A DNA stretch of 64,000 nt from an uncultured Actinomycetes bacterium (GCA_963767005.1 CAVYCN010000002.1:512001-576000); one strand, 5' to 3'. Counted from the first letter of the stretch, positions 1,192 to 5,919 are shown. A program made the numbers and translations. The notes: generated from the sequence alone by a model not told the origin.

Positions 1192-1832
1192 CCGCCGCTC
1201 ACCTCACTCGTCTCGTCGGTCGCCGTACCGCTCGGCGCACCCTCGGCAGATGCACCCGGCTCCGCGGCGGCCGTGCCCTGCGTGGGCCGACCGGTCGTTT
1301 CGTCACCCGACATACCCGCGGCGGCCGTCGCCGAAGCCCCGGCCGTCGGCTCGCTCCAGCCGGTGAAGGGCTGGCTCGCGGCCGACGCCGCCGCGCCGGC
1401 AGCGCCGCCGCCAGCATCGCCGCCGGCCGACTCTTCCGGCTCGGCGCCCCGATTGAAGAAGCTCGAGACGGCCTGCGAGACTCCGGCGCCGAACGCGGCG
1501 GCCTTGCGGGCCGGTACGCTGATCGCCGACTCGACCGCGCGCGTCGTCTGATCGACCTTCTCGGTGACATCGACCACGCTCGACATGACCACGTCGACCT
1601 TGTCGAGCTCGGCGTTGACCCCGTCGAGCGTCTCGGTGGCCTGCTTGAGCAGCGGCACCACCTCGCCGTCGACGTCGCCCAGCAGCTTGTCGGCCGACTT
1701 CAGCGCGCCGCCGAGCCGCACCAGAGCGTAGATCAGGCCGATACCGACGACGACCAGGAAGAACGCGGCGGCGTACCGCAGGGCCATCGAGGGGGCGCTC
1801 GCGGCCACGGTCAGCAGCAGTGGGTCAGTCAT
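1188..1832 (-). CDS. DUF948 (YtxG/YoxC-like) membrane protein with Ala/Gly/Thr-rich tail
   Basis: One TM segment, then coiled-coil VVPLLKQATETLDGVNAELDKVD; ATG 1832 with SD GGAGG at 1841-1845. Confidence 0.75.
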   Translation of the reverse strand: MTDPLLLTVAASAPSMALRYAAAFFLVVVGIGLIYALVRLGGALKSADKLLGDVDGEVVPLLKQATETLDGVNAELDKVDVVMSSVVDVTEKVDQTTRAVESAISVPARKAAAFGAGVSQAVSSFFNRGAEPEESAGGDAGGGAAGAAASAASQPFTGWSEPTAGASATAAAGMSGDETTGRPTQGTAAAEPGASAEGAPSGTATDETSEVSGG

Positions 1833-2947
1833 CGATGTCGCCTCCATCGCCGCGCGTGCCGGCCTCGGGTTTGCGCGCACACCCTATCACACCGTCACAG
1901 GCCTCGGCGGCGCCCGCGACGACGCCCCCGCCGACCACGACGTCGTCGCGGTAGAACACGGCCGACTGGCCAGGGGCGACACCGCGGAACGGCTCCCGCA
2001 GCTCGACCAGGGCCCGCCGCCCGGGCCGCCGCAGCACGCGCGCGACCCCCACCGCCGCCGACCTGTACCGCAGCTGCACAGAGAGGTCGCAACCGTCGCC
2101 CAGCCCGCGGTCGACGACGTCGCGCAGGGCGACCGCGCGAAGCGGCGAGGGCGTCGGCCGGGCCGACGACCACACGGTCACGCGCGACGTCGATCGCGAG
2201 CACGTACTGGGGGGCCGCGGCGCTCAGGCCGAGGCCGCGGCGCTGGCCCACGGTGAAGCGCCAGCAGCCGTCATGCCGGCCGAGCACGCGGCCGGCACGA
2301 TCGACGATCTCGCCGCTCCCCGGCGGCGCGCCGCGCGCCGCCAGGAACTCGCGATGGTCGCCCGGGGCGAAGCACACCTCCTGACTCTCGGCCTCGTCGG
2401 CGACCGCCAACGCGGCGCGCCGGGCCCGCTCGCGCACCGCCGTCTTGGTCAGCTCGCCCAGAGGCAGCACGAGCCGCGCGAGCGTCGCTTCGGGCACCCG
2501 CCAGAGCATGTACGACTGGTCCTTCGCGCGGTCGCGCCCGCGCGCCACGTAGGGGCGCCCGTCGAGCCACACCACGCGGGCGTAGTGACCCGTCGCCACC
2601 CAGGCGGCGCCGAAGCGGTCGGCGAGCGCGACGAGCCGGGCGAAGCGGCCCGGGTTACAGTCGACGCAGGGGTTCGGGGTCTCGCCGGCGAGGTAGCCGG
2701 CCACGAACGGGTCGACGACCTCGGCGGCGAAGCGGGGCTCGTCGTTCACGCTGAAGTGGGGCGCTCCGATGGCGTGCGCGCTCTCCCGCGCGCGCAGTAA
2801 GGCGGCCGGTGAGCAGCAGCTGCGTTCGTCGTCGCCGGGCCAGAGCCTCACGGTCGCGGCGCGCACCTCGTACCCGCCCTCGCGCAGCACGAGGGCGGCC
2901 ACGGCGCTGTCGACGCCGCCGCTCAGGCCTACGACGACGCTTTTTTT
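1825..2947 (-). CDS. mnmA: tRNA 2-thiouridine(34) synthase MnmA; no in-frame start codon, plus an internal frameshift near 2135-2142
   Basis: VVVGLSGGVDSAVAA PP-loop, SCCS, TPNPCVDCN, ATGHYA, KDQSYML, ESQEVCF, TVGQRRGLG. The C-terminal VQLRYRS...VAPGQSAVFY lies in a second frame (ORF 1825..2181). Confidence 0.93.
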
Positions 2948-3342
2948 CCGAGCACCTTCGCGACGTCGTCGGCCCTGCCCGCCTTGGTCAGGTAGTCCTC
3001 GATCGCGAGGTGCAGCGCGTCGGCCGCCAGGTTCGAGCAGTGCATCTTCTGGGCCGGGAGGCCGCCCAGCGCCTCGGCGACGGCGCGGTTCGAGATCTCG
3101 GCCGCCTCGTCGAGCGTCTTGCCCATGACCATCTCGGTCACCATGCTCGAGGTGGCGACCGCCGCCCCGCAGCCGAAGGTCTTGAACTTGACGTCGGTGA
3201 TGCGATCGTCCTCGACCTTGATCGTCATGCGCATGACGTCGCCGCAGACGGGGTTGCCGATCTGGCCGGCGCCGTCGGCGTCGTCGACCTCCCCGACGTT
3301 GCGGGGGTTGGCGAAGTGGTCCATCACGAGATCGGTGTACAT
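2929..3342 (-). CDS. iscU: Fe-S cluster scaffold IscU/NifU-N
   Basis: DHFANPRNVG, GNPVCGD, FKTFGCGAA, KMHCSNL: all three ligand Cys present. Confidence 0.95.
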   Translation of the reverse strand: MYTDLVMDHFANPRNVGEVDDADGAGQIGNPVCGDVMRMTIKVEDDRITDVKFKTFGCGAAVATSSMVTEMVMGKTLDEAAEISNRAVAEALGGLPAQKMHCSNLAADALHLAIEDYLTKAGRADDVAKVLGKKASS

Positions 3343-3346
3343 GCGG

Positions 3347-4504
3347 TTACCTCTTGACGTAGAGCGGGCTCATGTCGCGCAGGCGCGCGACGATGGACGG
3401 AAAGACCTTCAGGAACTCGTCGACATCGGCGTCTGTGTTCTCGCGGCCGAGCGTGAGCCGCACGCTGCCGTGGGCCTCCTCGGCGCGGTAGCCCATGGCC
3501 AGGATGACGTGCGACGGCTCGAGCGAGCCCGAGGCGCAGGCCGAGCCGCTCGACACGGCAAAGCCCTTGCCGTCGAGCTGCAGGACCATCGACTCGCCCT
3601 CGATGTAGGCCACCGAGACGCAGACGTTGCCGGGCAGGCGCTCGGTCGGGTGGCCCAGGTTGATCGTGTCGTCGATAGCCTGGACGATGCCCTCGGAGAG
3701 GCGGTCGCGCAGCGCCGCGAGGCGTGCCGCCTGCGTGGGCAGCTCGGCGACGGCGAGCTCGAGGGCCATGCCGAGCCCGACGATCGCCGGCACGTTCTCG
3801 GTGCCCGAACGCAGCCGGCGCTCGTGGCCGCCGCCGTGCAGGATGGGGCCGATGCGGGTGCCGCGCCTGATGTAGAGGGCGCCGATACCCTTGGGGCCGT
3901 AGAGCTTGTGGCCCGACAGCGAGAGCAGGTCGACGCCGAGCGCGCCGACGTCGATCGGCAGGGCGCCGACCGCCTGCACCGCGTCGGTGTGGAAGGCGGC
4001 GCCGTGCTCGTGGGCGATACGGGCGAGCTCGGCCACCGGCTGCAGCGTGCCGACCACGTTGTTGGCGAACATGATCGAGGCCAGGCGCGTGTCGGCGCGG
4101 AAGGCCGCGGCGTAGGCGTCGACGTCGACGACGCCGTCGCGGTCGACGGCGGCGAAGGTGCAGTCCCAGCCCTGGCGCATGAGGGCGCGGGCCGTCTCCA
4201 TGACCGCCGGATGCTCGACCGCGCTCACGACGAGGTGACCGGGCTCGAAGCGCTGCAGATAGCCGGTGAGGGCGAGGTTGTCGGCCTCGGTGCCGCCGCT
4301 CGTGAAGACGATCTCCTTGTCGGCCGCCCCCAGCGCCACCGCCACCTGGGCCCGCCCGCGCTCGACCGCGGCGCGCGCCTCGCGGCCCGGTGCGTGGATC
4401 TCGGACGCGTTGCCGTAGCGCTCCACGAAGTAAGGCTCCATCGCCGCGAACACGCGCGGGTCGACCGCGGTCGTCGCCGCATGATCGAAGTACACGTAGC
4501 TCAT
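3347..4504 (-). CDS. iscS: Cysteine desulfurase IscS/NifS
   Basis: YFDHAATT, FTSGGTEADN, HTDAVQ, SGHKLYGPKG (PLP Lys), SSGSACAS (catalytic Cys); ATG 4504 overlaps the Rrf2 stop. Confidence 0.96.
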   Translation of the reverse strand: MSYVYFDHAATTAVDPRVFAAMEPYFVERYGNASEIHAPGREARAAVERGRAQVAVALGAADKEIVFTSGGTEADNLALTGYLQRFEPGHLVVSAVEHPAVMETARALMRQGWDCTFAAVDRDGVVDVDAYAAAFRADTRLASIMFANNVVGTLQPVAELARIAHEHGAAFHTDAVQAVGALPIDVGALGVDLLSLSGHKLYGPKGIGALYIRRGTRIGPILHGGGHERRLRSGTENVPAIVGLGMALELAVAELPTQAARLAALRDRLSEGIVQAIDDTINLGHPTERLPGNVCVSVAYIEGESMVLQLDGKGFAVSSGSACASGSLEPSHVILAMGYRAEEAHGSVRLTLGRENTDADVDEFLKVFPSIVARLRDMSPLYVKR

Positions 4505-4914
4505 GTCGTGATCGCCTCCACCGAGAGTTCGTCGAGACTGATGTCGCCGAGCGCCCTGCTGATGGCGTCGTCGAGCCGGCGCCACACGCGTTGCGACGCG
4601 CAACTGCCGGCGCGGGCGCAGCCGCCCTCGTCGGGCAGGCAGCCGACCAGCGACAGCGGGCCTTCGATGGCCGTGACGATGTCGGCGACCGAGATGGCCC
4701 CGGCCGGACGCGAGAGGCGGTAGCCGCCGCTCGCGCCGCGCGTGCTGGCGACGAGCCCGCCGTCACGCAGGCGGGCGAGGATCCGTTCGAGGAAGGCGGT
4801 CGGCATGTCTTCGCCGTGGGCGATCTCGGTGAGCGGCACGGGCTCTTCGCGCGCCGCGCGCGCCAGGTAGATCATGGCGCGCAGGCCGTACTCGCAGCGG
4901 GACGAGATGCGCAC
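4501..4914 (-). CDS. Rrf2-family regulator, IscR-like (3 Cys)
   Basis: EYGLRAM, FLERIL, STRGASGGY wHTH; CLPDEGGCARAGSC cluster-ligand pattern; heads the isc operon. Confidence 0.92.
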   Translation of the reverse strand: MRISSRCEYGLRAMIYLARAAREEPVPLTEIAHGEDMPTAFLERILARLRDGGLVASTRGASGGYRLSRPAGAISVADIVTAIEGPLSLVGCLPDEGGCARAGSCASQRVWRRLDDAISRALGDISLDELSVEAITT

Positions 4915-4941
4915 GTGAGATGGCCTCCATGGCTCGCGGCC

Positions 4942-4994
4942 AATACCGACAGAAAAGGTCGGGATTATCGTACCACGCCGGCCGCGCTCGTCAA
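4942..4994 (-). promoter_or_regulatory. sigma70 promoter plus IscR type-1-like operator for the rrf2-iscSU-mnmA operon
   Basis: TTGACG (4994-4989) and TGG-TACGAT (4972-4967); 25-bp inverted repeat AATACCGAC-N7-GTCGGGATT (4942-4966) over the predicted start site. Confidence 0.75.
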
Positions 4995-5070
4995 ACGATG
5001 CTTGGGGTGCCGATGCGGCGACGCCGCCCGGAAGGGCGGCGTCGCGCTGGTGACCGGGTGTCGGCGGGCG

Positions 5071-5610
5071 CTACTGGGCGAGCGCGTTCGCGACGACCTG
5101 GGACATGACCTTCTCGCTGATCCAGCCGGTGTACTCCTGGTACACGCTGCCGTTCGGCGAGATCACGACGAACGCCGGTGGCTGGGTGATCTTGAGCTGG
5201 GCGAGCACGTCGCCGAGCTCGGAGGCCTTGTGCGCCTCGAACGCGAAGAACGAGCCCTGCGCGGCGTACTTGGCCTTGACGTCGTTGAACTGGGTCAGCA
5301 TCTGCTGGTCGACCGTGCCGCCCGCGAGGTACACGAGCAGGATGACCCCGCGCTTCTCGGCGAGCGGGTTCTTGATGAACGACGGGATGTTGTTGCTCTG
5401 GCTCGAGATGGAGAGGGTCGGGTAGCCGGTGATGCCGTAGCTGCCGGCCGTGTTGTAGTTGCCCGACACCACCGTGCCGGTCGTTGTGGCCGCGGGAGCA
5501 TTCGTGGCGAGGACGATGCCGCCTGTGAGGAGGGCCATGATGCCCACACCCATGACGACGATCAGGCCCGCCTTGATAAGGAAGGACCGGTACGAGGGCT
5601 GGCCAATCAT
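5071..5610 (-). CDS. Membrane-anchored protein with probable Cys-less thioredoxin-like domain
   Basis: N-terminal TM helix; C-terminal LKITQPPAFVVISPNGSVYQEYTGWIS resembles the Trx cis-Pro/beta3-beta4 region; no Cys; SD GGAGG before ATG 5610. Confidence 0.6.
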   Translation of the reverse strand: MIGQPSYRSFLIKAGLIVVMGVGIMALLTGGIVLATNAPAATTTGTVVSGNYNTAGSYGITGYPTLSISSQSNNIPSFIKNPLAEKRGVILLVYLAGGTVDQQMLTQFNDVKAKYAAQGSFFAFEAHKASELGDVLAQLKITQPPAFVVISPNGSVYQEYTGWISEKVMSQVVANALAQ

Positions 5611-5629
5611 CTGCGCCTCCAAGGAAAAG

Positions 5630-5774
5630 GCTCCACCTTGCCGTGTTCGCTTTCTTATTGAACCTGCAAGTGCAGGTGGGTGCCCTCCCGGCGGTCCACG
5701 GACCGGCCGGAGCCGGGCTCCCGGCGCGTGAGTGTTGGCTCAATAACGCCGCGAATCACGCACAAGGTCGAGCG
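5630..5774 (-). ncRNA. ssrS: 6S RNA (SsrS), Firmicutes-type, compact (~145 nt)
   Basis: Rod structure: GCUC/GAGC, ACCUUG/CAAGGU, UUCGC/GCGAA, UUAUUGAGCC/GGUUCAAUAA, GGGAGCCC/GGGCACCC. Hallmark GGCACCCACCUGC..GCAGGUUCAA..CACGGC; extended -10 TGC-TATCAT at 5789-5781; located downstream of aspS as in Firmicutes. Confidence 0.88.
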
Positions 5775-5919
5775 GTCGGCATGATAGCACGACGAGCGCT
5801 CATCCTGTGAACTTAAGTCGGCAGCACGGCGAAATGCTTGAGCGCTTGAGCCTGACCGACGCCGCCCCACGCCGTGGTCGAGCCGGCCTCGAGCGGCGGC
5901 GACGCCGTCGCTCGACGGT

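Follow-up and report, generated by a model that had tools for sequence, protein, structure and literature searches.

How does a bacterium translate an enzyme whose reading frame lacks a canonical start codon? The question is raised by a locus within a 64,000-nucleotide stretch of DNA from an uncultured Actinomycetes bacterium (GCA_963767005.1, CAVYCN010000002.1:512001-576000; hereafter the window), in which mnmA, encoding the tRNA U34 2-thiouridylase, overlaps the end of the Fe-S scaffold gene iscU in another frame. A first-pass annotation of the window had proposed that a programmed -1 shift at this junction delivers both free IscU and an IscU-MnmA fusion, a claim now backed by a heptamer in the same phase in 65 of 83 genomes of the family and in 12 metagenome contigs. 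Judged by this comparative evidence, the end of iscU very probably harbours a genuine and conserved, probably ribosomal, -1 frameshift through which the start-less mnmA is expressed, and in most members of the family slippage is likely the only route to this housekeeping tRNA-modification enzyme.

The iscU-mnmA junction

The operon lies on the minus strand and comprises rrf2 (4914-4501), iscS (4504-3347), iscU (3342-2929) and then mnmA. Its first gene encodes an Rrf2-family regulator, IscR/CymR-like (TIGR00738 above cutoff; PF02082), the second an IscS/NifS cysteine desulfurase (TIGR03402, E 1.4e-153, slightly below cutoff) and the third, read in the 0 frame, a 137 aa IscU/NifU Fe-S scaffold in which all three Cys are present (TIGR03419 NifU_clost, 203.6 bits versus a cutoff of 187.9; PF01592). 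A promoter scan of 1700-5200 returned a sole sigma-70-like match, at 4967-4994 (minus strand) upstream of rrf2-iscS-iscU-mnmA, versus 0.1 in shuffled sequences, and nothing resembling a promoter at the iscU-mnmA junction, which has no Rfam match either. The mnmA frame (1825-2941, minus strand; NF001138, TIGR00420, PF03054, PF20259, PF20258) is -1 relative to iscU and open from a TAA at 3349. From this TAA down to a GTG at 2902 it contains no ATG, GTG or TTG, and the GTG is reached only after the SGGVDS codons of the PP-loop (2906-2923, minus strand), so that MnmA is indeed devoid of a usable canonical start, as had been claimed.

The 3' end of the iscU ORF reads GGA AAA AAA GCG TCG TCG TAG. 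The sequence confirms that the heptamer A_AAA_AAA at 2941-2947 (minus strand), followed by G, lies in the codon phase of iscU and is suitably placed for a predicted -1 slip into mnmA. The earlier remarks on codon choice around it were equally accurate: seven of the nine iscU Lys codons are AAG, the exceptions being the AAA AAA pair of the slip site, and the iscU stop TAG (2929-2931, minus strand), three codons past the heptamer and within the codons of the first MnmA beta strand, arises from a GTA Val codon of mnmA. Among the 712,129 codons of 1461 long ORFs of this genome AAA makes up 5.6% of Lys codons and the in-phase A_AAA_AAA occurs once; the 3.44 Mb genome has five A7/T7 runs and no longer ones. 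A single strong PF03054 match indicates that mnmA is single-copy, and the only NifU_N match of the genome is the iscU itself.

The encoded MnmA combines the PP-loop with a complete CC-CxxC-C motif (CC, CxxC and the third Cys), in agreement with its earlier assignment, which is one by motif, to the C-type, [4Fe-4S]-dependent enzymes. The window had also been suspected of holding other probable indels, and one was located in mnmA: a genome-specific one-base insertion at 2128-2142 (minus strand), which interrupts the gene near 2135 and leaves the C-terminal domain out of frame. The break is absent in all five relatives aligned, and the C-terminal PGQ motif is in frame in 9/9 other full-length loci of the same genus; it is likely an assembly error.

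Conservation of the candidate slip site in the family

The family consists of uncultured Thermoleophilia represented by 89 genomes, 83 of which gave an mnmA match, and all 83 junctions were examined. An X_XXA_AAA heptamer in the codon phase of iscU, with mnmA in the -1 frame, is found in 65 of them, covering 8 of the 11 genera, as A_AAA_AAA in 17 genomes (genera g1, g2, g3, g4, g5, g9 and g11) and as C_CCA_AAA in 48 (g10). Aligning the junctions of relatives, as had been advised, thus revealed a conserved A-rich run and -1 offset in these genomes and in the 12 metagenome contigs; the family genomes being related, such counts are not independent events. The motif is also present in G005 (contig edge) and G064 (broken PP-loop), which were left unscored, and a second copy in G059 (L090, with an indel) was dropped. 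The two forms of the heptamer lie at two distances from the PP-loop and the codon phase is always kept. In all 65 shifting loci the A-site codon is AAA, the base 3' of the heptamer is G and the 0-frame iscU stop follows after 1-7 codons. No canonical start exists within 50 codons before the PP-loop in 57 of the 65; the remaining eight have an in-frame start upstream of it, two of them at codons -4 and -5, from where a near-complete enzyme would be possible. The junctions therefore display the features by which bacterial programmed -1 frameshifts are recognized, an in-phase X_XXY_YYZ motif and a start-less overlapping -1 ORF that completes a known protein, in genes that standard annotation would label truncated or broken.

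Codon usage at the site departs from that of the surrounding genes. In g10 (43 sequences, after dropping 5 with a cut or broken mnmA) the slip codons are CCA in 42/42 and AAA in 42/42, versus 33 CCA in 1019 Pro codons and 10 AAA in 384 Lys codons elsewhere in the genes. In the A7 group (14 sequences, 3 having been dropped, this genome among them) both slip-site Lys codons are AAA in 14/14, versus 10/149 elsewhere in the same genes. Ahead of the two Lys stands Gly, Arg, Leu or Pro, in every case with a codon ending in A (GGA, CGA, CTA or CCA, each at 1-6% of codons in this genome), so the P-site amino acid changes and the run survives. The top windows of synonymous conservation (of 462 and 465) fall on the site and 5-10 codons past it. 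Part of this signal is upkeep of the 0-frame stop; as read from the alignments, nucleotide conservation at the slip site itself exceeds what the protein needs. In g10, the CTC GTC and AGC found among codons +5 to +9 past the slip are synonymously invariant as well (41-42 of 41-42), and no structure explaining this was found there. At the protein level, the catalytic Cys and the PP-loop of MnmA are all conserved, and C33, C58 and C102 of IscU are invariant in 44/44 aligned sequences.

The heptamer is missing from 16 family genomes (12 of g6, 2 of g7, G018 and G051), in which iscU and mnmA are separate genes, and in 15 of the 16 its loss coincides with the gain of a canonical in-frame start (ATG, GTG or TTG) a short way upstream of the PP-loop. 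An ordinary mnmA start in relatives had been named as evidence that would count against recoding; such a start is far from general, 65 of the 83 junctions being shifted, but it does exist in those 15 genomes. The junction of G018 (L232) has neither slip site nor ATG, GTG or TTG, and an AGGAG Shine-Dalgarno (SD) sequence followed at 8 nt by ATC suggests a non-canonical start. In part of g6 (L233 = G098, L237 = G099) iscU is reduced to a 33-codon remnant or lost, and iscS adjoins mnmA. The 0-frame iscU tails past the slip site are His/Glu/Asp-rich in g10 and g6 (L020, L018, L021, L053) and are kept or enlarged in the separate genes, hinting that free IscU may use its C-terminus.

Beyond the family genomes, 80 metagenome loci comprised the 12 shifted junctions, 9 of them C_CCA_AAA, together with 35 in-frame fusions, 32 loci without an IscU match and one without a PP-loop. 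The closest named record (L091), titled Thermoleophilia, has the same C_CCA_AAA junction.

Probable mechanism of the shift and alternative explanations

At the heptamer, the tRNAs in the P and A sites (Lys and Lys in this genome, Pro and Lys where the site is C_CCA_AAA) would slip back by one base, after which reading would continue as G-K-K-S-V-V-V-G into MnmA, supplying its beta strand and PP-loop. One mRNA would then yield mostly free IscU and a minority of IscU-MnmA fusion, and a low slip rate would fix a high scaffold-to-enzyme ratio from a single Rrf2-controlled operon. Both heptamers are reported to shift above 0.10% in E. coli in the absence of stimulators (PMC4066793). In the same host A_AAA_AAA is described as a weaker site than A_AAA_AAG (PMC5009743); in the present genome, which has two tRNA-Lys genes with anticodon CTT and one with TTT, tRNA-Lys(CTT) should make AAG less slippery.

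The first-pass annotation had further pointed to two candidate stimulators, neither of which is supported. The SD-like GAAGGTG is present (2959-2953, minus strand), but it ends 5 nt before the heptamer and this spacing is not conserved, being 5 nt in g1 and about 18-20 nt in g10, the C_CCA_AAA group; 5' SD stimulators of -1 shifting sit 9-14 nt from the site (PMC5009743), a distance at which none was found with a generic anti-SD, used because a search for the genome's own 16S 3' end found none. The motif is thus probably not a stimulator. A downstream GC/GU stem can be drawn as well, but it shows no selection over and above that on the protein: the candidate helix pairs equally well in non-shifting relatives, two of its pairs are broken in 8/48 g10 loci, and the family junctions revealed no compensatory changes or covariation. 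Bacterial -1 shifts commonly, though not obligatorily, have a 5' SD and a 3' stem-loop or pseudoknot that lies 5-8 nt downstream. At the iscU-mnmA junction, downstream folding exceeded shuffles mildly (mean z of -0.92) and gave, against synonymous recoding, z of -0.93 (A7), -1.68 (C_CCA_AAA), -0.93 (non-shifting family members) and 0.09 (fused relatives, a value that may be biased by codon weights taken mostly from this family). The slight excess is shared by the non-shifting relatives, and the most stable local structure around the mnmA site is about -11 kcal/mol. Since no strong stimulator is apparent, the shift rate is probably low.

A genome-wide scan provided a control site in the form of a second in-phase -1 A_AAA_AAA candidate, outside the window on the minus strand (G000:C7:119335; L238:1530-1536), where a MoxR-type AAA ATPase is joined to a vWA domain and a hairpin of -24.5 kcal/mol lies 5 nt downstream. 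Among the best 25 loci of the 83 genomes with this gene, 24 use A_AAA_AAA (13) or C_CCA_AAA (11), followed by G. The use of the same two heptamers by an unrelated gene pair indicates that these motifs are the -1 signals of the family. In this genome a T_TTT_TTG -1 candidate also occurs in an ORF pair that is present twice in inverted orientation (C2:678015 and C2:679326) and presumably represents an insertion sequence, which it resembles.

Other readings of the iscU-mnmA junction have to be weighed against tRNA slippage. It is extremely unlikely that a sequencing artefact conceals a true A8, and thereby a plain fusion, or that mnmA is a pseudogene. The A8 error had been raised as a caveat from the outset, the mnmA of this assembly does contain a second error-like one-base break, and plain fusions predominate elsewhere in the class; a homopolymer error is nonetheless rejected because the pattern of phase and heptamer conserved across genomes is beyond what it could produce, the same phase recurring in 64 other genomes and the 12 metagenome contigs, 48 and 9 of which, respectively, have four A's. 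The A7 of this very assembly rests on such relatives, one of which contributes a short-read contig that bridges 2839-3136 with 0 gaps, and the conserved catalytic Cys and PP-loop argue against a pseudogene. Slippage of RNA polymerase on the A-run, with one A added to give a minority mRNA coding for the fusion, is the means by which Thermus, endowed with two Lys tRNAs, expresses dnaX (PMC5009743), and A7 runs, found in 17 of the 65 loci, can give rise to mRNA indels (PMC4066793). However, 48 of the 65 loci offer merely four A's, no run is longer than seven, the motif is fixed in ribosomal codon phase at every locus, and the hairpin 3' of the MoxR/vWA control site is of the type that accompanies ribosomal shifting. 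We consider this origin of the fusion very improbable, the four A's of most loci and the constant phase favouring slippage of tRNAs over that of the polymerase.

Separate synthesis of MnmA is also conceivable, through coupled re-initiation at a non-canonical codon, for instance a CTG immediately ahead of the PP-loop overlapping a TGA stop. CTG or TTG precedes the PP-loop Ser codon in 63 of the 65 loci, an ATG or GTG stands at codon -4 or -5 in two, and the AGGAG-ATC arrangement of G018 may illustrate a start of this kind. A start at that position would, however, remove the hydrophobic beta strand that leads into the PP-loop (127-134 of the fusion model), a strand whose sequence the -1 frame conserves, and re-initiation leaves unexplained both the invariant heptamer of rare codons and its disappearance at precisely the loci that gain a start, so that we regard it as quite improbable. 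Ribosomal -1 slippage remains the preferred explanation.

A possible feedback on tRNA thiolation

The sole tRNA that decodes AAA is tRNA-Lys(UUU), whose U34 is thiolated by MnmA. It is therefore tempting to speculate that the frameshift doubles as a feedback sensor, comparable to that of prfB (release factor 2) and self-correcting, in which scarcity of sulfur or of Fe-S clusters would leave this tRNA unthiolated and more prone to slip, and more scaffold-bearing MnmA would be made. In E. coli without tRNA-Lys thiolation, -1 shifting at the G/T site of lambda is reported to rise (PMC3296357); together with the decoding of AAA by tRNA-Lys(UUU), this makes such feedback mechanically possible. The constancy of AAA in the A site, the single tRNA-Lys(TTT) gene and scarce AAA codons of this genome, and the persistence of the shift where a second NifU-type gene is present would all fit. 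On the other hand, the lambda G/T result concerns an AAG codon, and loss of the U34 mnm5 group either lowers or raises -1 shifting depending on the site (reviewed in PMC13602947). Moreover, the MoxR/vWA pair has the same heptamers and 3' G in 24/25 loci, even in genomes whose mnmA is non-shifting, and so AAA appears as the default of the family and not as a sign of feedback. The invariance of AAA was accordingly rejected as evidence for feedback, the motif not being specific to mnmA. Both the sensor and its response to sulfur or Fe-S shortage are thus rather doubtful additions to the frameshift explanation; if true, a tRNA-modification enzyme would govern its own synthesis by frameshifting, within a living intermediate of a class-wide gene fusion.

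Likely evolution of the gene pair and probable role of the tethered scaffold

The MnmA sequences of the family form one clade (SH-aLRT 100; quick trees with midpoint root) whose deepest branches carry the shifted state, and the same-class rows group with Gaiellaceae and Miltoncostaeaceae. AU tests on 34 rows, covering 20 of the 83 family genomes and with groups named after the first tree was seen, rejected monophyly both for the shifted rows (p-AU 0.004) and, though weakly, for the separate-gene rows (p-AU 0.038). The deep position of the shifted state and these rejections suggest that the common ancestor of the family likely had the shift, which was resolved several times to separate genes and at least once, in one contig, to an in-frame fusion. 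The latter is metagenome contig L271, a single contig falling inside the family tree, in which iscS is followed by an intact three-Cys IscU in frame with MnmA and there is no A-run. Shifted, separate and fused states of one gene pair within a family would constitute a rare natural record of fusion in progress.

A look at the 1.5 kb flanks of 28 iscU loci in other families and classes yielded no mnmA. One of 80 named genome loci, from Syntrophaceae (L130), has an iscS-iscU-mnmA order with its own TTG start for mnmA; at its junction stop and start overlap in the form TTGA, after which MnmA begins with A-rich sequence, a layout that may show how a slip site could arise.

Constitutive IscU-like/MnmA fusions, which the first-pass annotation mentioned for related Thermoleophilia, do exist: 18 of 25 same-class loci from other families are in-frame fusions and none is shifted, the other seven having a long open N-terminal extension with no IscU match (Pfam, run on 4). 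The fused gene occupies the same locus in nine genomes of other families, after hisS and mostly before DUF948, without rrf2-iscS, and a separate strong IscU match is also found in six sampled genomes of families f4 and f6. The IscU domain of these fusions is usually worn. Its first scaffold Cys is invariant in 28/28 aligned fusions and the third is missing from 34/34 class-type metagenome fusions (motif search); the natural fusion L175, which keeps it, is predicted to fold as one unit (pTM 0.92). A fold search with the fusion model retrieved MnmA and IscU structures separately and no chain spanning both, and a complex prediction with the two proteins as separate chains scored 0.26 against a mark of 0.32, a value that counts neither for nor against their association. 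In Gaiella-like relatives (L027, L030, L190 and many metagenome loci) MnmA has an N-terminal extension, shortened and eroded, that no longer scores as IscU.

What the tethered domain contributes can be approached through these distributions. It probably helps to load or resupply the sulfur or [4Fe-4S] cluster of the C-type MnmA, and a class-wide fusion in which one scaffold Cys is invariant suggests a direct hand-off of sulfur or cluster from IscS to IscU to MnmA that bears on how C-type enzymes are loaded. The earlier notion of an MnmA carrying its own scaffold is supported as far as the predicted fused product goes, but the need for tethering is weakened by the 16 family genomes that encode MnmA alone, in which an enzyme without the IscU domain indicates that the domain is not essential. 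Neither can the need for free IscU alone explain why the shift persists, since at least two NifU_N matches (matches, not copy numbers) are present in 46 of the 48 g10 genomes that shift. The argument that free IscU is the sole scaffold, so that a fusion cannot become fixed, fails for most g10 genomes; it holds for the present genome, with its one NifU_N match and no SufBD, and for g1, throughout which SufBD is absent. SufBD is present in 44/89 genomes of the family.

Comparison with known frameshift genes

To our knowledge, few chromosomal bacterial genes depend on -1 frameshifting. In E. coli dnaX the shift truncates its product, whereas in iscU-mnmA it would be the sole route to a second enzyme. 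In both systems a housekeeping gene offers an X_XXY_YYZ heptamer for tandem slippage of Lys/Lys tRNAs, dnaX giving tau and gamma; dnaX differs in combining A_AAA_AAG with an SD stimulator, in place of A_AAA_AAA or C_CCA_AAA with no SD at 9-14 nt (PMC5009743). The nearest relative in design is chlD, of the Mg/Co chelatases, where a chromosomal -1 shift at A_AAA_AAR likewise extends a stand-alone short protein into a fusion, in-frame fusions occur in other genomes and the A-rich heptamer is under purifying selection (PMC9227772, PMC5009743, PMC3711429). Unlike chlD, the products of iscU-mnmA belong to different processes, Fe-S scaffolding and tRNA thiolation, no strong 3' structure is seen, and the shifting tRNA would be a substrate of the very enzyme synthesized.

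The comparison with prfB is one of logic, both being obligatory shifts for a translation-related protein of which non-shifting versions arose in several branches; that of prfB is +1 and autoregulatory, while that of iscU-mnmA is -1, has an upstream ORF encoding a full functional protein, and involves feedback as a hypothesis only (PMC5009743). The lambda G/GT pair also makes a short product and a rarer -1 extended one with a Lys tRNA in the A site, sensitive to U34 thiolation in E. coli, but it belongs to a phage, uses an AAG codon and is uncoupled from MnmA synthesis (PMC3296357). On the enzyme side, the C-type [4Fe-4S] MnmA of Thermus thermophilus has the same CC-CxxC-C motif and PP-loop, and the main text describing it contains no mention of IscU or NifU and no such fusion (PMC7025502).

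A literature search, with subscription papers mostly outside its scope, retrieved nothing on a frameshift or fusion between iscU/nifU and mnmA. The accessible part of PMC5009743 contains neither mnmA nor nifU, NifU does not occur in the text and two of the three supplements of PMC3711429, and the accessible parts of PMC10219651 and PMC13066941 describe no natural IscU-MnmA fusion. Therefore, although the -1 mechanism itself is known, with the frameshifted chlD as its nearest example, this gene pair and the obligatory role of the shift for a tRNA-modifying enzyme appear undescribed.

Some features of the genome were recorded along the way. Upstream of the operon, the window encodes at 5071-5622 (minus strand) a 183 aa membrane-anchored protein that has no Pfam or NCBIfam match and is conserved at the same locus across the family, f4 and f6. 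Besides the Lys tRNAs, ARAGORN predicted a tRNA-SeC and a tRNA with a CTA anticodon in this genome. A 6S RNA (RF00013, 67.9 bits) is located at 5626-5776 (minus strand) of the window, between aspS and the next gene.
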